Shown in pieces: positions 3,111 to 17,935 of a stretch of DNA of 31,005 nt. The position numbers and the translations under genes were made by a program. Below the pieces are notes generated by a model that was not told the DNA's origin, did no database searches, and saw nothing but the letters and a program-made list of their open reading frames with translations. Source of the DNA: a virus (lineage: Duplodnaviria > Heunggongvirae > Uroviricota > Caudoviricetes); IMG/VR virus record IMGVR_UViG_2671180986_000015; one strand, written 5' to 3'. The first letter of the stretch is position 1. Each line of letters starts with the position of its first letter.

Positions 3111-3151
3111 NNNNNNNNNNNNNNNNNNNNNNNNNNNNNNNNNNNNNNNNN
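3111..3151. other. N-masked run (41 nt) in the A-B intergenic region
   Basis: Literal n characters. Confidence 1.
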
Positions 3152-3178: not shown

Positions 3179-4162
3179 ATGACTGATATTGATGATGTTT
3201 TCAACACTATTAACGCTTTGATTAACGAGGGCGACAAGTCTCAGGAAGATANNNNNNNNNNNNNNNNNNNNNNNNNNNAAGATATTGCTGATGAAGCCGG
3301 AATGTCTCCGGCAACACTCTCGGCTCTGCGTAAAGGAGAGTACAACGGTAATGTCGAAGGTATGCATGACAAATTACAGAAATGGTATCAGGTCTGGCAG
3401 AAGGGACAGAACTTGTCAGGTACCCCTGGTGTTGTGAAGACCCAGACATTTTGTGATTTGCATGAGCTGTTTAAAACAGTGCGCTCACTCGGGATTATCA
3501 GTGTCGTTGTTGGCGTACCGGGTGTCGGAAAAACCTTTGCTGCCCGGGAATATTGTCGCAGGACAGCTAATGCCTGGATGGTGACTCTTGCTCCGGCACA
3601 TTCGAGCGTAACGGAATGCCTCCTTGAAATAGCATATGCGCTGGAAATTAATAATCCGGGAAGAAATAAGGGGAATATAACCCGCGCCATTCGCAGAAAA
3701 CTGGGTGGTGGTAAAGAAACCAGTGGCCGTGTTAACCCCCTTCTGATTATTGATGAAGCTGATCACTTAAGTGTGGATGGTCTGGAGCAATTACGCGCCA
3801 TTCAGGATGCCACTGGCGTGGGGATGGTTTTAATTGGCAACCCGAAACAGATGGCGGATGCCACCCGTCGTGGGACTGATGAACTGGCCCGTCTGTTCAG
3901 CCGTTTTGCCATGACAAAACAACTGCGCAAAGTAAAAAAGACCGATGTGATGGCTGTAGCCAAAGCATGGGGAGTAACACAGGAAGATGAGCTGGACCTG
4001 CTGATGAGGGTAGCCGAAAAGCCCGGGGGATTGCGTGTATTAACTCACACACTGAATCATGCGTGGCTGGCGGCAAAAGGTGCAGGCACATCCCTGAATA
4101 AAAGTCACATTAAAGCGGCTTTTAAGGAGGCTTACAGCAACCCCAGGTTACTGAACTGGTAG
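3179..4162 (+). CDS. B: MuB-like AAA+ ATPase (transposition target DNA activator)
   Basis: Walker A GVPGVGKT and Walker B LLIIDEADHL; GAGG RBS before ATG 3179; directly downstream of the transposase. Interrupted by a 27-nt N-run (3252-3278). Confidence 0.85.
   Translation: MTDIDDVFNTINALINEGDKSQEDXXXXXXXXXXDIADEAGMSPATLSALRKGEYNGNVEGMHDKLQKWYQVWQKGQNLSGTPGVVKTQTFCDLHELFKTVRSLGIISVVVGVPGVGKTFAAREYCRRTANAWMVTLAPAHSSVTECLLEIAYALEINNPGRNKGNITRAIRRKLGGGKETSGRVNPLLIIDEADHLSVDGLEQLRAIQDATGVGMVLIGNPKQMADATRRGTDELARLFSRFAMTKQLRKVKKTDVMAVAKAWGVTQEDELDLLMRVAEKPGGLRVLTHTLNHAWLAAKGAGTSLNKSHIKAAFKEAYSNPRLLNW
3252..3278. other. N-masked run (27 nt) inside B
   Basis: Literal n characters. Confidence 1.
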
Positions 4163-7928: not shown

Positions 7929-8480
7929 ATGAATCGCACATCCCTGATTAAATTAATTCATGTCGCCCGTCGTGATCTACAACTCGACGATGACACTTAC
8001 CGCGCCTTTCTGGTGCAGCACACGGGCAAAACCAGTTGCCGCGAGCTGTCCGTTGCACAACTGGAACGTGTGCTCGATGCCATGAAAGAGCGCGGTTTTA
8101 AGAAGCAGAAAAAACATCCCCGCCGTCGCTTTAAGGGGCATGTCACACCGCGCGAGAAGATTTATAAAATCTGGCAGCAGATGTTCCTTGATGGTTTCGT
8201 CTCCGATATCAGCGACGCTGCGCTGGACAAATACGTTGAACGCCTGACGGCCAGACGTAATGGCGGTCAGGGTGTTTCCACGCTGGCCTGGTGTCACGGG
8301 GAATCGTTGCATGTTGTGCTCGAAACGCTCAAACAGTGGCATATGCGCTGCATCCGGGAAGCCTTTGCCCGACATGGTGTGCCTTTACCTGTGAGCGAAA
8401 CCGGGCGGAAGCTGCGCGGCTATGATGCACTGACCAGTGCATATGCCCGCGCACGAAACAGCGGGAGAATTGCTGTATGA
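7929..8480 (+). CDS. gemA: GemA-like protein (Mu gp16 family)
   Basis: ATG 7929 with GGAGG 7 nt upstream (MNRTSLIKLIHVARRDLQLDDDTYRAF...); N-terminal motif and position immediately upstream of mor match Mu gemA as I recall it. Confidence 0.65.
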   Translation: MNRTSLIKLIHVARRDLQLDDDTYRAFLVQHTGKTSCRELSVAQLERVLDAMKERGFKKQKKHPRRRFKGHVTPREKIYKIWQQMFLDGFVSDISDAALDKYVERLTARRNGGQGVSTLAWCHGESLHVVLETLKQWHMRCIREAFARHGVPLPVSETGRKLRGYDALTSAYARARNSGRIAV

Positions 8481-8926
8481 AACAGATGAAAGAGCAGGAT
8501 TTATTCGAAGACTTCCGGGACGACAGCGTTCTGGAATACCTTAACGATTACCAGGAAAACACGGCTTATCCGGCGTTACTTTCTGAACTGAACGCACTGC
8601 TGCGTAAAGAGCTGGCCCGGATTGGCGCAGACCCTGCCCATTCCCTTGAGCTGGTTGTGGCGATTTGTCGCTATATCGGCGGGATGCAGGTTTATGTTCC
8701 GAGGGGGAATATTCTGGAGAATCTTGTCCGGGATATGCGTATCTGGCGTGATTTTAACGGCCATAATATTCCTGAACTGGTTCAGCGTTACGGGGTGACG
8801 TATAAAACCGTCTACAAGGCCATCAAGCGGATGCGGCGTCTGGAGTGTAATAAATACCAGCCGGATTTGTTTTACCACTCCCCGAACCTGCCTCACCCCG
8901 TTCGTCGTCCGCCACGACGTCCTTAA
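8477..8926 (+). CDS. mor: Mor/C-family transcription activator
   Basis: Start overlaps the gemA stop (ATGA). Contains PALLSELNALLRKELARIGADPAHSLELVVAICRYIGGMQVYVPRG and the C-terminal HTH YGVTYKTVYKAIKRMRR, characteristic of Mu Mor as I recall it. Confidence 0.88.
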   Translation: MKQMKEQDLFEDFRDDSVLEYLNDYQENTAYPALLSELNALLRKELARIGADPAHSLELVVAICRYIGGMQVYVPRGNILENLVRDMRIWRDFNGHNIPELVQRYGVTYKTVYKAIKRMRRLECNKYQPDLFYHSPNLPHPVRRPPRRP

Positions 8927-8933
8927 TCAATGA

Positions 8934-8956
8934 AGCCGGTAAATCCGGCTTTTTTT
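8934..8956 (+). terminator. Intrinsic terminator after mor
   Basis: Hairpin AGCCGG-TAAAT-CCGGCT immediately followed by a T7 run, starting 8 nt after the mor stop. Confidence 0.6.
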
Positions 8957-9011
8957 ATGCCTCCGGCACCATGAAGCAGACCACGTTTAAATCTGCTTCA
9001 CAGGTGCTTTT

Positions 9012-9599
9012 ATGGAAAATCAAAAATTCTCCCCGGCCTTTGAGTATGCGCTGAATTTTATTCTGCGTCCCGATATCGAAGGCGTCTATGTCAATGACCC
9101 CACTGACCGTGGCGGCGAAACCAGATACGGCATTTCTGACCGCCGCGACGGTGTGATTGACGGCAAAACCGATGTCAGCGGCGACGGTAAACCGGATACC
9201 CGCATCAGGGATTTAACCCGCGAACAGGTCGCGCAGATTTACTGGCGCGATTACTGGCTGCCTGCCGGATGTGACCAGTGGCCTGATGGCGTGGCGATGT
9301 TTGTGTTCGATGCGGCGGTTCAGCATGGCGTTAAAAAAGCTATCAGGATTTTGCAGGAAGCCGCTGATGTGGATGCTGACGGCATCATCGGTCCGCGTAC
9401 CCGTAAGGCAGTGAGCCTGTCCACCCCGGACTGGTTGCTGACCCGCTGCATTGTCCGTCGTTCCCGCTTTTATGCCGACATCATCAAATCCAAACCTGCC
9501 CAGGGCAAATACCTGAACGGCTGGTTTAACCGCATGGAGAAAGTGACCGACGCCTGTCTGGAAATTATCGACAACGTGTCGTCCGTCACGCGGGGATGA
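9012..9599 (+). CDS. Putative endolysin, GH108-like muramidase with peptidoglycan-binding domain
   Basis: N-terminal motif VYVNDPTDRGGETRYGI typical of GH108-family lysozymes; no N-terminal transmembrane or signal segment; first gene of the lysis/late block; AGGTG RBS. Confidence 0.75.
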   Translation: MENQKFSPAFEYALNFILRPDIEGVYVNDPTDRGGETRYGISDRRDGVIDGKTDVSGDGKPDTRIRDLTREQVAQIYWRDYWLPAGCDQWPDGVAMFVFDAAVQHGVKKAIRILQEAADVDADGIIGPRTRKAVSLSTPDWLLTRCIVRRSRFYADIIKSKPAQGKYLNGWFNRMEKVTDACLEIIDNVSSVTRG

Positions 9600-9671
9600 T
9601 ATGGCAAAGGCTGGGATGCCTCGCTGAGAGCCGGGCGGCGTGACCGCCTGCGTCAGGAGGTTTTACATCGT

Positions 9672-9827
9672 ATGGCCGGAGGTCCGCCCCCGAAACCGCT
9701 GGACTATACCGGTCATGACGGCACACACGCCAGCCACTACATGCGTGGCTGGAACACCGTGGATACACGGGACATTTTCTGGCAGTGCCAGAAGTACAAG
9801 GAAAAACTCAATGCACAGAATGAATAG
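9672..9827 (+). CDS. Candidate small ORF (51 aa) in the lysin frame downstream of the lysin TGA
   Basis: ATG 9672 preceded by AGGAGG (9655-9660, 11-nt spacer); good codon usage; ends at TAG 9825-9827 overlapping the start of the next gene. See findings for alternatives. Confidence 0.3.
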   Translation: MAGGPPPKPLDYTGHDGTHASHYMRGWNTVDTRDIFWQCQKYKEKLNAQNE

Positions 9828-10221
9828 TCTTTTTGTTCGCGTTATTTACTCCCGCTTTATGTTGTGCCAGTGGTCGTTTCTGGGGCTGTCGGCAGTCCTT
9901 TTTCTGGCGAGCTGTTTTGCCGGATGGCAGGCGTTTGCGGTCATGGTGCTGGCATACGGCGCGACACTCTGCCTGATTCACAGTTTCCAGCTGGGCAACG
10001 TACCTTATCGCCTGCAACCCAAAAGGCGTTTCCGGGCCGCCTCCCTTCGAATTGTCGTGTGGTCATGGGTGGTCTGGGTCGTTGGTTTTTTCATGCTGAC
10101 ATTCGGCCTTCTTTATCTGAAGGAGCCTTATCAGCTGGCGTTCTGGCTGGGCGGTATCTTTTGTGCGGCACTTTATAAACATCAGCGCCGTTTTCATAAG
10201 GGGGATTCATGGACCCGTTAA
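9811..10221 (+). CDS. Membrane protein with 3-4 predicted transmembrane segments, lysis-module member (holin candidate)
   Basis: ATG 9811 (or 9820) with AAGGA upstream; hydrophobic stretches FLGLSAVLFLASCFAGWQAFAVMVLAYGATLCLI, IVVWSWVVWVVGFFMLTFGLLYL, LAFWLGGIFCAALY. The longer GTG-9640 version in the ORF track was rejected on codon usage. Confidence 0.5.
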   Translation: MHRMNSLFVRVIYSRFMLCQWSFLGLSAVLFLASCFAGWQAFAVMVLAYGATLCLIHSFQLGNVPYRLQPKRRFRAASLRIVVWSWVVWVVGFFMLTFGLLYLKEPYQLAFWLGGIFCAALYKHQRRFHKGDSWTR

Positions 10222-10817
10222 CCCTTTCAGGCATCGCCTCCGTTCTGCTGAAAGCCGGGCCGGGGCTGATTCGTTCCGTCGGGCGCTGGTTTGGTGGCAG
10301 CACATCTGCCGCCGCTGACTCGGTGGCCGGTATGGTGGAAAGCGTCCGGGAAAGCCTGCCGGTGGCTGAACAGCAACGCATTCTGGAACAAAAACTGGTG
10401 ATGCTGTCACCGGAGCAACTGGTGCAGCTGGAAACCCTGAAAGTCCAGCTGCAACAGCTGGAGGTGGAGCGGCAGAAGCTGGTGCTGGCTGACCAGCAGG
10501 CCGCTCACCACGAACAACAGGAAACCATCCGCAACGGTGACAACGCCACGGACAGCTATGTGCGCCAGACGCGCCCGTTGCTGGCCCGTCTGTCCTGTTA
10601 CAGCAGTCTGGCCTATGTGCTGTTGCTCTCCTGTGGCCAGATTGCCGGTGCGGTTGCCGGTGCGAACGGTATCACGCTGCATATGCCGTCACCGGACTGG
10701 GATATCACGCTGATGTTGTTTACCCCGGCGCTGGGCTATCTCGGGGTAAGAACCCTTGACGGCTTTGCCCGTTACAGCAAATCGAGCTGTCACAAAATAT
10801 CAGCGGGGCCGAAATGA
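10209..10817 (+). CDS. Coiled-coil protein with C-terminal transmembrane segments (holin-like or lysis-associated)
   Basis: ATG 10209 overlapping the previous gene end; central heptad-like Q/L-rich region (LVQLETLKVQLQQLEVERQKLVLADQQ) followed by hydrophobic segments LAYVLLLSCGQIAGAVAG and ITLMLFTPALGYLGV. Confidence 0.5.
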   Translation: MDPLTLSGIASVLLKAGPGLIRSVGRWFGGSTSAAADSVAGMVESVRESLPVAEQQRILEQKLVMLSPEQLVQLETLKVQLQQLEVERQKLVLADQQAAHHEQQETIRNGDNATDSYVRQTRPLLARLSCYSSLAYVLLLSCGQIAGAVAGANGITLHMPSPDWDITLMLFTPALGYLGVRTLDGFARYSKSSCHKISAGPK

Positions 10818-11041
10818 CCGATGAAACCGACCGCATCAGTGAAGTGGTTTTAAACGAACGTCAGGACGTCGTTAACGCCTGGCTGATGCGGATAAAAGAA
10901 GCACCCCACAGTCGGGGCTTCTGCAATGACTGCGGTAACGTTATTCCGGCACAGCGCATTGCGGTGCTGCCGGATGTGGTGACCTGTATTGACTGCCAGC
11001 AGGCGCGGGAACGCAGGAGGAAGACGTGTCCTGGGAAGTGA
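10814..11041 (+). CDS. TraR/DksA-family C4 zinc-finger protein
   Basis: 75 aa with CNDCGNVIPAQRIAVLPDVVTCIDCQ (CxxC-17-CxxC), the TraR/DksA-type zinc finger pattern; start overlaps the previous stop (ATGA). Confidence 0.75.
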   Translation: MTDETDRISEVVLNERQDVVNAWLMRIKEAPHSRGFCNDCGNVIPAQRIAVLPDVVTCIDCQQARERRRKTCPGK

Positions 11042-11331
11042 TCCGGGCCAACTGGCCTGTTTTATGGGCGCTGTTGATGACAGCAATAAACCTGATTCAG
11101 CTGATTCTGGCGAAGACTTACGTCAAACGCGAAGAGTTTGATTCGCTGCGTTCCCGCGTGTCGGTGATGGAAGGCCTGGTGAATCAGTTACCCGACCGCA
11201 ATGAATTTCACCGCCTGCAACTGGATATCAGCAACCTGCGGGGTGAAATCAAAGAGCTGGGGCCATCCATCCGCCAGGTATCCCGCATCAGCGATTTGTT
11301 ATTAGAGAACGAATTAAAGGAAAAAAATTAA
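11026..11331 (+). CDS. N-terminally membrane-anchored coiled-coil protein (i-spanin-like topology)
   Basis: GTG 11026 with AGGAGG 5 nt upstream; N-terminal hydrophobic segment WPVLWALLMTAINLIQLIL followed by a charged helical region. Confidence 0.55.
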   Translation: MSWEVIRANWPVLWALLMTAINLIQLILAKTYVKREEFDSLRSRVSVMEGLVNQLPDRNEFHRLQLDISNLRGEIKELGPSIRQVSRISDLLLENELKEKN

Positions 11332-11887: not shown

Positions 11888-12798
11888 NNNNNNNNNNNNN
11901 NNNNNNNNNNNNNNNNNNNNNNNNNNNNNNNNNNNNNNNNNNNNNNNNNNNNNNNNNNNNNNNNNNNNNNNNNNNNNNNNNNNNNNNNNNNNNNNNNNNN
12001 NNNNNNNNNNNNNNNNNNNNNNNNNNNNNNNNNNNNNNNNNNNNNNNNNNNNNNNNNNNNNNNNNNNNNNNNNNNNNNNNNNNNNNNNNNNNNNNNNNNN
12101 NNNNNNNNNNNNNNNNNNNNNNNNNNNNNNNNNNNNNNNNNNNNNNNNNNNNNNNNNNNNNNNNNNNNNNNNNNNNNNNNNNNNNNNNNNNNNNNNNNNN
12201 NNNNNNNNNNNNNNNNNNNNNNNNNNNNNNNNNNNNNNNNNNNNNNNNNNNNNNNNNNNNNNNNNNNNNNNNNNNNNNNNNNNNNNNNNNNNNNNNNNNN
12301 NNNNNNNNNNNNNNNNNNNNNNNNNNNNNNNNNNNNNNNNNNNNNNNNNNNNNNNNNNNNNNNNNNNNNNNNNNNNNNNNNNNNNNNNNNNNNNNNNNNN
12401 NNNNNNNNNNNNNNNNNNNNNNNNNNNNNNNNNNNNNNNNNNNNNNNNNNNNNNNNNNNNNNNNNNNNNNNNNNNNNNNNNNNNNNNNNNNNNNNNNNNN
12501 NNNNNNNNNNNNNNNNNNNNNNNNNNNNNNNNNNNNNNNNNNNNNNNNNNNNNNNNNNNNNNNNNNNNNNNNNNNNNNNNNNNNNNNNNNNNNNNNNNNN
12601 NNNNNNNNNNNNNNNNNNNNNNNNNNNNNNNNNNNNNNNNNNNNNNNNNNNNNNNNNNNNNNNNNNNNNNNNNNNNNNNNNNNNNNNNNNNNNNNNNNNN
12701 NNNNNNNNNNNNNNNNNNNNNNNNNNNNNNNNNNNNNNNNNNNNNNNNNNNNNNNNNNNNNNNNNNNNNNNNNNNNNNNNNNNNNNNNNNNNNNNNNN
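11888..12798. other. N-masked run (911 nt)
   Basis: Literal n characters; hides the end of the gp27-like gene and the start of the large terminase. Confidence 1.
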
Positions 12799-14043: not shown

Positions 14044-14159
14044 NNNNNNNNNNNNNNNNNNNNNNNNNNNNNNNNNNNNNNNNNNNNNNNNNNNNNNNNN
14101 NNNNNNNNNNNNNNNNNNNNNNNNNNNNNNNNNNNNNNNNNNNNNNNNNNNNNNNNNNN
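14044..14159. other. N-masked run (116 nt)
   Basis: Literal n characters. Confidence 1.
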
Positions 14160-14234: not shown

Positions 14235-15845
14235 GTGNNNNNNNNNNNNNNNNNNNNNNNNNNNNNNNNNNNNNNNNNNNNNNNNNNNNNNNNNNNNNNN
14301 NNNNNNNNNNNNNNNNNNNNNNNNNNNNNNNNNNNNNNNNNNNNNNNNNNNNNNNNNNNNNNNNNNNNNNNNNNNNNNNNNNNNNNNNNNNNNNNNNNNN
14401 NNNNNNNNNNNNNNNNNNNNNNNNNNNNNNNNNNNNNNNNNNNNNNNNNNNNNNNNNNNNNNNNNNNNNNNNNNNNNNNNNNNNNNNNNNNNNNNNNNNN
14501 NNNNNNNNNNNNNNNNNNNNNNNNNNNNNNNNNNNNNNNNNNNNNNNNNNNNNNNNNNNNNNNNNNNNNNNNNNNNNNNNNNNNNNNNNNGGTGGCCGCC
14601 AGTGATGACGATGCCGACGTGCAGCTGGCGGACGCCATCCGTGCGCTGATGGAAGCCCCGCAAATCCCCGAACTGATGTTTGATTTGCTCGACGGGCTGG
14701 GAAAAGGCGTGGCGGTCTGTGAAATCCTGTGGGACACCCGCAACAACCACTGGATGCCCCGTGATTATGAGTGGGTTGATCCCCGTTTTCTGAAAGCCGA
14801 AAAGCCCACGCTGCGCCAGTTCCGCCTGCTGACGGACGATGAACCGGTGGATGGCGTACCGCTGACACCGGGAAAATTCATTGTTCACCAGCCGCGTCTG
14901 AAATCCGGTCTGCCGCTGCGTAACGGTCTGGCCCGTCTGGTGGCTGTGATGTACATGCTGAAATCCTTTACCGTGCGCGACTGGTGGGCATTTGCGGAAA
15001 AATTCGGCATTCCGGTTACGGTGGGGAAATACGGTCCCAACGCCACGGAGGAGCAAATCCGCGTGCTGATTGATGCGATTGCCTCCATTGCCTCGGATGC
15101 CGGGTGTGCCATTCCGCAGTCCATGCAACTGGAGATGCAGGAAACCGCCAGCCGGAATAACGGCGGCGCACTGTTCCGTGAAATGGCGGAATGGTGCGAT
15201 GCGCAAATCAGTAAGGCTGTGCTGGGGCAGACCATGACCACGGATAACGGCAGTTCGCGTTCACAGGCGGACGTGCACAATCAGGTGCGCATGGACATTG
15301 TGCGCTGGGACGCGCGACAGCTGGCTAACACGCTGAATGAATATCTGGTGCGGCCCTACATCGAGGCCAACTACGGGCCACAGGCGCACTACCCCCGTGT
15401 TGTTCTGCGTATCAGTGAAGCCGAAGATCTGAAGGCGCTGACGGATGCTCTGGTGCCGCTGATTGACCGGGGGATGCGGGTTCAGGAATCGGAGCTGCGG
15501 GACCGGTTCGGCCTGGCTGAGCCAGACGAAGGGGCTGATGTTCTGCATCCGGTTTCCGCCGGGATGCCGGGTGATATGGCGATGAACCGCGAGCGCGTCG
15601 CCCTGAACAGGGAACACCCCGACGAACTGGCACAGATGGTGGATGATGCCCTGCGTGACTGGCAGAAAACCGGCGAGGCGTTCACGAACCCGGTGCTGAC
15701 ACTGGCGCAGGAGTGCGACAGTTTTGATGACTTTCTGAAACGCCTGCCTGAGCTTCAGGAAACGCTGAACGCGGACGACTTTGCCCTGCAACTGGCGGAG
15801 GTGTGCTTTAAGGCGCGTGCGCTGGGAGACACTGCTCATGCGTGA
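14235..15845 (+). CDS. Portal protein (Mu gp29-like)
   Basis: GTG 14235 preceded by GAGGGAGG; long ORF whose visible part is 14591-15845; its stop overlaps the start of the F-like gene. The 5-prime end and frame are uncertain because of the masked run at 14238-14590. Confidence 0.75.
   Translation: MXXXXXXXXXXXXXXXXXXXXXXXXXXXXXXXXXXXXXXXXXXXXXXXXXXXXXXXXXXXXXXXXXXXXXXXXXXXXXXXXXXXXXXXXXXXXXXXXXXXXXXXXXXXXXXXXXXXXXXVAASDDDADVQLADAIRALMEAPQIPELMFDLLDGLGKGVAVCEILWDTRNNHWMPRDYEWVDPRFLKAEKPTLRQFRLLTDDEPVDGVPLTPGKFIVHQPRLKSGLPLRNGLARLVAVMYMLKSFTVRDWWAFAEKFGIPVTVGKYGPNATEEQIRVLIDAIASIASDAGCAIPQSMQLEMQETASRNNGGALFREMAEWCDAQISKAVLGQTMTTDNGSSRSQADVHNQVRMDIVRWDARQLANTLNEYLVRPYIEANYGPQAHYPRVVLRISEAEDLKALTDALVPLIDRGMRVQESELRDRFGLAEPDEGADVLHPVSAGMPGDMAMNRERVALNREHPDELAQMVDDALRDWQKTGEAFTNPVLTLAQECDSFDDFLKRLPELQETLNADDFALQLAEVCFKARALGDTAHA
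14238..14590. other. N-masked run (353 nt) inside the portal gene
   Basis: Literal n characters. Confidence 1.
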
Positions 15846-16206: not shown

Positions 16207-16450
16207 NNNNNNNNNNNNNNNNNNNNNNNNNNNNNNNNNNNNNNNNNNNNNNNNNNNNNNNNNNNNNNNNNNNNNNNNNNNNNNNNNNNNNNNNNNNNNN
16301 NNNNNNNNNNNNNNNNNNNNNNNNNNNNNNNNNNNNNNNNNNNNNNNNNNNNNNNNNNNNNNNNNNNNNNNNNNNNNNNNNNNNNNNNNNNNNNNNNNNN
16401 NNNNNNNNNNNNNNNNNNNNNNNNNNNNNNNNNNNNNNNNNNNNNNNNNN
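16207..16450. other. N-masked run (244 nt)
   Basis: Literal n characters. Confidence 1.
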
Positions 16451-16467
16451 ACCATTCACACCGAAGC

Positions 16468-16876
16468 NNNNNNNNNNNNNNNNNNNNNNNNNNNNNNNNN
16501 NNNNNNNNNNNNNNNNNNNNNNNNNNNNNNNNNNNNNNNNNNNNNNNNNNNNNNNNNNNNNNNNNNNNNNNNNNNNNNNNNNNNNNNNNNNNNNNNNNNN
16601 NNNNNNNNNNNNNNNNNNNNNNNNNNNNNNNNNNNNNNNNNNNNNNNNNNNNNNNNNNNNNNNNNNNNNNNNNNNNNNNNNNNNNNNNNNNNNNNNNNNN
16701 NNNNNNNNNNNNNNNNNNNNNNNNNNNNNNNNNNNNNNNNNNNNNNNNNNNNNNNNNNNNNNNNNNNNNNNNNNNNNNNNNNNNNNNNNNNNNNNNNNNN
16801 NNNNNNNNNNNNNNNNNNNNNNNNNNNNNNNNNNNNNNNNNNNNNNNNNNNNNNNNNNNNNNNNNNNNNNNNNNNN
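16468..16876. other. N-masked run (409 nt)
   Basis: Literal n characters; only a 17-nt island (16451-16467) separates it from the previous run. Confidence 1.
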
Positions 16877-16910: not shown

Positions 16911-17935
16911 ATGCAACCGGAACTGCTGGCGCTGTGTTTTTCCCTGCCAGAACCCATCCCTGAGCTGACACCCGCTCAACTGCCGGAATGGCTTGAACTC
17001 GTTCCTGCGGGTGAGTTCACCGGGCGCGATGGCCGGACGTGGATGAACCGCAATCCACATGAGGTGGTTGCCCGTTCGTCCGACATCAACATTCCGGTGG
17101 ACATTGAACATGCCACCGAAATTAAAGGCCCGCGGGGTGAAGAGGCTCCGGCGTATGGCTGGGTGGAAGCACTGCGGGTGACGGACAGCGGCACCATTGA
17201 AGGGCGTGTTGTCTGGAGTGAGTCCGCCCGGTGGATGCTGAGCGAGCGCCGCTACCGCTATTACAGCCCGGCGTTTTTCCATGACGCAGACGGTGCGGTG
17301 ACNNNNNNNNNNNNNNNNNNNNNNNNNNNNNNNNNNNNNNNNNNNNNNNNNNNNNNNNNNNNNNNNNNNNNNNNNNNNNNNNNNNNNNNNNNNNNNNNNN
17401 NNNNNNNNNNNNNNNNNNNNNNNNNNNNNNNNNNNNNNNNNNNNNNNNNNNNNNNNNNNNNNNNNNNNNNNNNNNNNNNNNNNNNNNNNNNNNNNNNNNN
17501 NNNNNNNNNNNNNNNNNNNNNNNNNNNNNNNNNNNNNNNNNNNNNNNNNNNNNNNNNNNNNNNNNNNNNNNNNNNNNNNNNNNNNNNNNNNNNNNNNNNN
17601 NNNNNNNNNNNNNNNNNNNNNNNNNNNNNNNNNNAGAAAAACGCCTTCAGCAACTGGAAGAGAAGGAAGCCGAGGCGCTTGTGGATGCGGCCATCGGGGC
17701 CGGAAAAGTCGCCCCGGCAAACCGTGACATGTTCCTTGCCACCTGCCGCACGGAAGAAGGCCGCAAACAGTTTGCGGAGTACACCAAAGGTGCACAGCCG
17801 CTGGTTAACAACGACAAGCCCAGCCAGGGCAAGGATAAACCCGCGCAGACACTGACCGATGCCGAACTGGCGATGTGTCGCAGCATGGGGATTACCGGGG
17901 AAGAGTTCCTCGCCGCTAAACCGAAACAGGAGTAA
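16911..17935 (+). CDS. Protease/scaffold protein, Mu I/Z-like
   Basis: ATG 16911 with GGAGA upstream. After the masked run the reading frame resumes (EKRLQQLEEKEAEALVDAAIGAGKV...) and ends at TAA 17933-17935, 7 nt before the major head gene. The frame relation across the gap is unknown. Confidence 0.7.
17303..17634. other. N-masked run (332 nt) inside the protease/scaffold gene
   Basis: Literal n characters. Confidence 1.

Follow-up and report, generated by a model that had tools for sequence, protein, structure and literature searches.

A frameshifted copy of the phage Mu gp18 gene, very probably a pseudogene, behind the endolysin gene of a Mu-like prophage

Positions 9601-9827 of the window (the whole stretch of viral DNA analysed here, 31,005 nt in length) very probably hold a separate small gene, a homologue of gp18 (E18) of bacteriophage Mu, which has been frameshifted by a deletion of one base pair at codon 2 and is now an ordinary prophage pseudogene. 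The gp18 family, made up of small soluble proteins of about 75 aa, is already catalogued. The case bears on annotation: the proper description of the locus is a Mu gp18-family pseudogene with a frameshift, and it would be wrong to annotate it as a 51-aa hypothetical protein (as in several Shigella sonnei records), as part of a 193-aa membrane protein starting at GTG 9640, or as a recoding event. It also illustrates how a one-base deletion beside a stop codon can mimic readthrough. The features of the region are collected in Table 1.

Table 1. Coordinates of the endolysin gene, the displaced gp18 gene and their neighbours, and of the N runs in the window.
Feature	Positions	Strand	Evidence and remarks
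Mor-family transcription activator	8477-8926	+	Pfam Mor, E=4.3e-30; annotated by RefSeq in the locus that is 99.8% identical; precedes the module, as in Mu
GC hairpin and T-run after mor, AAGCCGGTAAATCCGGCTTTTTTTA	8930-8957	+	terminator-like match at 8932-8952; corresponds to the start of the Mu Pm region
GH108 endolysin, complete, 195 aa	9012-9599	+	stop TGA 9597-9599; Glyco_hydro_108, 2e-23; PG_binding_3, 2.2e-17, residues 110-175; phrog_315 endolysin
Native gp18 start, ATG 9601-9603, now an 8-codon out-of-frame ORF (MAKAGMPR) ending at TGA 9625-9627	9601-9627	+	ATG aligns with the starts of WP_000515806.1 and Mu gp18
Site of the 1-bp deletion	9603-9604	+	from alignments: GGG in relatives (ATGGGC), GG in the window (ATGGC, 9601-9605)
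Body of the Mu gp18 homologue, codons 2-75 and TAG	9603-9827	+	no start codon of its own; shifted into the lysin frame
AGGAGG (9655-9660) and ATG 9672-9674	9655-9674	+	Gln-Glu-Val codons (CAG GAG GTT) and Met25 of gp18
136-aa membrane protein, in the position of Mu gp19	9811-10221	+	WP_005144138.1; phrog_12596, E=2.2e-53
202-aa holin-like protein, three transmembrane segments	10209-10817	+	phrog_1544, E=6e-59; weak GTA_holin_3TM, E=0.0027, below the Pfam cut-off
N runs	3111-3151, 3252-3278, 11888-12798, 14044-14159, 14238-14590, 16207-16450, 16468-16876, 17303-17634		

A homologue of Mu gp18 follows the endolysin gene

In a search of phage genomes, window positions 9603-9807 matched gene 18 (E18) of Mu, D108 and SfMu at about 71% DNA identity, the similarity to Mu starting at position 9603. 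Restoration of a single G yields a protein of 75 aa (MGKGWDASLRAGRRDRLRQEVLHRMAGG...NAQNE, opening with MGKGWDAS) that is identical to the RefSeq protein WP_000515806.1, shares 66% identity over 68 residues with Mu gp18 (BLASTP, E=5e-35) and matches phrog_2121 over its full length (residues 1-73, E=2.2e-37). PF26867 (Phage_Mu_gp18) is assigned, in the precomputed annotation of the protein collection, both to the 51-aa ORF discussed below and to all homologues; the 75-aa protein had no match in our local Pfam-A, a copy that does not contain the gp18 model. By BLASTP, phrog_2121 and PF26867 alike the similarity to Mu gp18 covers the whole length, and the context is also that of Mu-like phages, the gene being located after those for GemA and Mor and overlapped at its 3' end by the start of the membrane-protein gene. 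What the locus lacks is an intact ORF with the invariant MGKGW start, since ATG 9601 is out of frame with codons 2-75. It is a disrupted member of Phage_Mu_gp18 (PF26867)/phrog_2121 and not a functional one.

Mu gp18 (E18, Mup18, NP_050622.1) has the same MGKGW N-terminus as the homologue in the window, and in both phages the gene is found 3' of mor and of a hairpin at the start of the Mu middle-promoter region. The distance from the gp18 ATG to the start of the downstream membrane-protein gene is 211 nt in Mu and in the intact locus of Escherichia coli FDAARGOS_943, and 210 nt in the window because of the 1-bp deletion. The neighbouring genes differ. In Mu, gene 18 is a 72-aa ORF directly after mor with no lysin upstream, whereas in the window a GH108 endolysin lies between mor and gp18; downstream of gp18, Mu has gp19, gp20 and C, and the window has the 136-aa membrane protein, the holin-like protein with three transmembrane segments and TraR. 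Between the 136-aa membrane protein and Mu gp19 no similarity was detectable (E=0.65).

A one-base deletion uncouples the start codon from the gene body

In this group of prophages the gp18 ATG is usually found one base past the lysin TGA (TGAtATGGGCAAAGGCTGG), and gp18 and lysin are read in different frames. WP_000515806.1 is the intact 75-aa orthologue in Mu-like prophages of E. coli and Shigella; these relatives read TGA T ATG GGC AAA GGC TGG where the window reads TGA T ATG GCA AAG GCT GG, and the missing G is the sole difference within 9560-9850. The loci of E. coli FDAARGOS_943 and VL40, which are 99.8% identical to the window, carry the extra G together with a RefSeq 75-aa CDS (WP_000515806.1) from the ATG equivalent to 9601, and against both of them the window aligns in two frames with a single 1-bp gap, the pattern by which homology-based annotation such as PGAP recognises a frameshift pseudogene from a close intact homologue. 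When complete E. coli genomes were searched, 47 records contained the stretch, and in 40 of these the match length fits the intact form, with one additional base in two records, 10 in 37 (a 9-nt insertion in the lysin plus one base) and 11 in one; the other seven aligned to the first 364 query bases only and lie outside this judgement by match length. Unlike the loci encoding WP_000515806.1, the allele in the window cannot give a full-length product.

The junction was read in E. coli and Shigella prophages, in Serratia, in a Klebsiella phage, in a Yersinia Muvirus and in a metagenomic relative. In all of them gp18 has its own start (ATG GGN AAR GGN TGG), which overlaps the lysin stop or follows closely behind it and is never in the lysin frame. 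Relatives from E. coli and Shigella (L002-L004, junction TGAtATG) have a frame offset of 1 from the lysin, as does the Yersinia Muvirus vB_YpM_5, where lysin and gp18 overlap by 8 nt; the offset is 2 in the Klebsiella phage Kp4866-3 (TGAgcATG), in the Serratia prophages (TAAgcaccATG, a 5-nt spacer) and in the distant metagenomic relative L009 (TAATG overlap); for Mu, with no lysin upstream of gp18, an offset is not applicable. Judged from these junctions, a frame shared by lysin and gp18 is unique to the deletion allele.

The comparison points to a simple course of events. Intact gp18 lies one base off the lysin frame, and the loss of one G by the start codon puts codons 2-75 into that frame without the ATG. 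Ribosomes starting at AUG 9601, or terminating on the lysin, would then make an 8-residue peptide and stop, and codons 2-75 would go untranslated, or would at most be weakly translated from Met25. The remaining 74 codons are intact but have no start, and they stand in the lysin frame by accident; the impression of a frame that stays open beyond the lysin stop arises because these displaced gp18 codons happen to share that frame. The native start codon and the body of the gene are no longer joined in one frame, and from the alignments and the structure model described below the gp18 allele is most likely null, which would make it a prophage pseudogene. The downstream membrane-protein gene (ATG 9811) is closely preceded by a purine-rich stretch of its own, AAGGAAAAA, and need not suffer from the deletion.

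The open frame downstream of the lysin stop

A first-pass annotation, made from the sequence alone, had noticed that the lysin ORF (9012-9599) stops at TGA 9597-9599 and that the same frame continues without a stop to TAG 9825-9827, with a codon usage that looks coding. Both observations are correct, the continuation comprising 75 sense codons. The openness of the frame alone is unremarkable: estimated from the stop-codon frequency, a run of 75 or more open codons has a probability of about 0.06, and six others of the 23 window genes are likewise open for at least 75 codons beyond their own stops. The part that goes beyond chance is the codon-usage signal. Scored as log2-odds per codon with a table derived from the 23 genes, the codons of 9600-9671 (n=24) reach +0.255 when read in frame with the lysin; the two remaining frames give -0.08 and -0.41. 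Segments of 24 codons from real genes have a mean of +0.386 (sd 0.194) in frame and of -0.276 (sd 0.227) off frame, and only 1.3% of the off-frame segments reach +0.255. The signal at 9600-9671 is there because a real gene, the gp18 homologue, is present, and coding sequence extends over the whole of 9600-9827, taking in the 24 codons ahead of ATG 9672 that had been suspected to be coding.

The ORF of 193 aa from GTG 9640 in the neighbouring frame exists as listed, and the codon scores bear out the suspicion that it is a spurious extension of the membrane protein, the overlapping part of its frame scoring as non-coding. Counted 5' from its ATG, the membrane-protein frame, at 9628-10221 in the window, is open across gp18 for about 60 codons in the relatives from E. 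coli and Shigella (L002-L004). The open part is shorter in the Klebsiella phage, with 45 codons, and in Mu, with 22.

The conserved N-terminus and the 51-aa ORF

ATG 9672 is indeed the first ATG, GTG or TTG in the frame and is preceded at a distance of 11 nt by AGGAGG, and the ORF that it opens yields the 51-aa peptide quoted in the first-pass annotation. The proposal that this peptide is the gene does not hold, as ATG 9672 is an internal codon, number 25, of a 75-aa protein and is Val in Mu and most homologues. As coding sequence, CAGGAGGTT does not vary among Mu and all the relatives; at codon 25 Mu has GTC (Val), and the family as a whole has V, M, E or L. The apparent ribosome-binding site and start at 9655-9674 are best seen as a by-product of the coding sequence, because AGGAGG is part of the invariant Gln-Glu-Val codons and Met25 is unconserved.

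By alignment, the N-terminus is the best-conserved part of the gp18 family. Invariant in 15 homologues are M1, G2, K3, G4, W5, G12, R16, E20, V21, H23 and R24; MGK-x-W is retained even in relatives that match only at E values of about 1e-10 to 1e-4, and all 18 of the 18 matches in phage records start at residue 1. For gp18 codons 1-24 compared with Mu, vB_YpM_5 and Kp4866-3, pS is 0.66-0.85 and pN 0.10-0.14 (pN/pS about 0.1-0.2), and this low pN relative to pS indicates strong purifying selection in the gp18 frame. An AlphaFold2 model of gp18 (pLDDT 84.5) has helices at residues 4-26, 43-52 and 56-74, and a product starting at Met25 would, on this model, be without the entire conserved N-terminal helix 1.

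We consider it unlikely that the 51-aa ORF from ATG 9672 is a functional truncated gp18 of this lineage that keeps helices 2 and 3. The ORF is undamaged, its AGGAGG is a strong Shine-Dalgarno-like element, and it is called in several assemblies, even in that of S. sonnei Moseley, where the 75-aa frame is intact. Yet the 11-nt spacing exceeds the optimum, the start codon and the AGGAGG are accounted for by gp18 coding sequence as described above, and the fragment would be without 11 invariant positions out of 24 as well as helix 1. The exact 51-aa ORF has been deposited from several S. sonnei assemblies. In Moseley (L004 1429-1656, AGRD01000092.1) the gp18 frame of 75 aa differs by one synonymous change, CTG>CTA, and the record annotates only the 51-aa ORF, which there is a start-site mis-annotation.

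Support for the deletion in other assemblies

The same G is missing in S. sonnei GCA_001253895.1 (L005), which has one substitution relative to the window, and in the Logan assembly of run ERR025752 (L006), which matches the window at 100% identity across 1719 nt. We count the deletion as confirmed in these two outside assemblies; six further similar contigs, five of them like L005 and one like the intact Moseley sequence, are not included in this count. The exact intact protein occurs on 165 contigs versus 6-9 contigs for the 51-aa form, and 75-aa members of the same cluster are found under other Shigella names (P0008, S. sonnei; P0007, S. boydii). The intact 75-aa copies in these two entries and in Moseley fit a polymorphism between lineages. 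Because it is also present in other S. sonnei assemblies, the deletion is probably, as far as the assembled sequences tell, a genuine mutation of one S. sonnei sub-lineage.

It is unlikely that the missing G is instead a sequencing or assembly error, in which case the gene would be intact in the real genome and there would be no biological feature to explain. The site is a homopolymer, and the databases contain other seemingly frameshifted copies, some of them poor-looking, such as P0062 with several frame changes and the E. coli 06-00048 plasmid with its deletion in a C run. The window itself contains eight N runs (2433 N in total), which suggest a draft or masked source, and a small share of doubt is left to this reading because of these runs and because the window is assembled sequence. 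A run of three G, however, is not a typical site of short-read errors, and the recurrence of the deletion in a GenBank S. sonnei assembly and in an independent Logan assembly, together with the polymorphism seen in the intact copies, speaks against an artefact. ORFs listed across the N runs of the window are artefacts.

A similar case is known from E. coli 06-00048, where a member of the same gene family on plasmid pCFSAN004178P_01 (GJ11_RS29070) is broken by a 1-bp homopolymer deletion and is called 'frameshifted' by PGAP. The event is independent of the one described here, as it affects a CCCCC run at codons 29-31 and the deletion in the window a GGG run at codons 1-2. The Mu-like element of 06-00048 is located on a plasmid record of 136 kb, with the broken gp18 at 561-811 of the extracted locus (L015).

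Readthrough, slippage and a split lysin

Readthrough of TGA 9597, which would produce a lysin with a 75-residue C-terminal extension, had been offered as an explanation of the open frame, and among the stop codons of E. coli UGA leaks most readily. Only in the window allele do the two ORFs share one frame, uninterrupted by a further stop, and we regard readthrough as very improbable. Instead of a conserved stop followed by an in-frame extension, the relatives have either TGA or TAA as the lysin stop (TAA in Serratia and in the distant metagenomic relative L009) and a junction ranging between an overlap of 8 nt and a spacer of 5 nt, and every examined relative with a lysin upstream has the downstream gene shifted by 1 or 2 against the lysin frame. 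When orthologous Mu-like prophages are aligned, the frame of 9600-9827 is thus shifted relative to that of the lysin, which is the outcome that the first-pass annotation had itself named as counting against its reading. Moreover, Mu has gp18 without an upstream lysin, and in the lysin cluster (520 members) the proteins are 195-198 aa long among the members listed. If a fusion were made at all, it would be in trace amounts, as a side effect of a recent deletion.

Programmed frameshifting or transcriptional slippage at the G run, by which full-length gp18 would be restored, appears less probable still. The deletion does lie in a short G run immediately past the start codon, but known slippage signals are far longer than a run of two G, and in the relatives no recoding is needed because their GGG is in frame. 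Scans of 8800-10400 for terminator-like elements and Rfam families flagged nothing at 9600-9650, and no Rfam family reached threshold anywhere in 8800-10400.

Least credible of all is an ancestral lysin of greater length that was cut in two by a nonsense mutation, for which only the frame shared in the window would speak, whereas GH108 and PG_binding_3 are complete before the stop (ending at residue 175 of 195), the lysins of close E. coli and Shigella relatives end in ...TRG followed by TGA at the equivalent position, and the supposed extension is homologous to a free-standing gene of Mu. The suspicion that a longer ORF had been broken by mutation was right for gp18, with its 1-bp deletion, and mistaken for the lysin, with its complete domains. 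On the sequences compared, we take both the split lysin and readthrough to be refuted, and the frameshifted gp18 remains as the preferred reading.

The endolysin-gp18 module

The gene order in the window is GemA, Mor, the hairpin, GH108 endolysin, gp18, the 136-aa membrane protein, the 202-aa holin-like protein, a TraR/DksA zinc finger protein and DUF2730. Among the loci compared for the module (window 9012-11331; L009-L014), those of Serratia have the same order, and in the distant metagenomic phage (L009-L011) it is kept from the GH108 endolysin onward, the lysin being preceded there by a KAP_NTPase gene or an ORF of 838 aa and not by GemA and Mor. The small protein encoded after gp18 ranges from 92 to 136 aa and is membrane-spanning in Shigella and Serratia; the 92-aa product at this position in L009-L011 has no hydrophobic stretch. 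In the window the start of the membrane-protein gene overlaps the end of gp18 by 17 nt and is in the +1 frame of intact gp18. The GTA_holin_3TM family is called outright in L009, and the exact lysin sequence of the window is found on 177 contigs. The recurrence of this module from Shigella through Serratia to a distant metagenomic phage indicates that gp18 is more tightly linked to an endolysin than Mu suggests, and in many Mu-like prophages it is tightly linked to both GH108 endolysin and holin-like genes. The 90%-identity cluster of the 136-aa membrane protein also lists many members of 202 aa, although the two proteins of the window differ, possibly as an artefact of the clustering.

The hairpin after mor differs in a single loop base (T in Mu and vB_YpM_5, A in the window) and is otherwise identical in Mu, vB_YpM_5 and E. 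coli PSS-15. The primer 'nt9163', used for cloning of Mu Pm, contains the hairpin sequence, and the hairpin lies within the cloned Mu middle-promoter fragment (PMC9239132). Since the hairpin of the window is near-identical to that at the start of this Mu fragment, it is plausible by analogy that a Mor-dependent promoter drives expression here, and as the hairpin is contained in the cloned fragment, the endolysin may be a Mor-dependent middle gene in this prophage.

In searches bearing on the function of gp18, neither its fold nor its sequence significantly matched a characterised protein. The AlphaFold2 model had no significant match in the PDB, where low-TM RNA polymerase omega chains were the best hits (E=0.64), nor in BFVD (best E=0.71), and a profile search of PDB sequences with gp18 returned a match at chance level only (E=0.071). 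In the literature searched we found no functional study of gp18, which is named only within cloned fragments in a paper on Mu lysis (PMC9239132). A natural fusion of gp18 with a holin, suggested by the phrog_2121 profile of 284 positions, was considered and dropped, as an exhaustive profile search found nearly all of the 26 representatives to be free-standing proteins of 70-110 aa. In that profile gp18 occupies positions 3-75 and the 202-aa holin-like protein positions 91-273, and the profile probably merges neighbouring genes. The sole match of 205 aa, P0066, consists of gp18 residues 1-32 fused by a frameshift into the downstream membrane-protein frame.

Gene order allows one to speculate, rather doubtfully, that gp18 might belong to the lysis cassette as a soluble member, perhaps one that regulates the holin-like or membrane proteins or the endolysin. 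It is found directly after the GH108 endolysin, with its end overlapping the start of the next gene, in E. coli, Shigella, Serratia and the metagenomic relative, in which gp18 was recognised by profile search only (E=4.7e-10). If such a role were true, the S. sonnei deletion would amount to a naturally occurring knock-out in which prophage lysis is altered or disabled, and natural null alleles of gp18 could in any case be used in the search for a phenotype. A second arrangement of lysis genes is seen in vB_YpM_5 (L007 1473-3401), which has a GH108 lysin between mor and gp18 and the classical Mu-type lysozyme (RrrD) after C, that is, two different endolysin genes.
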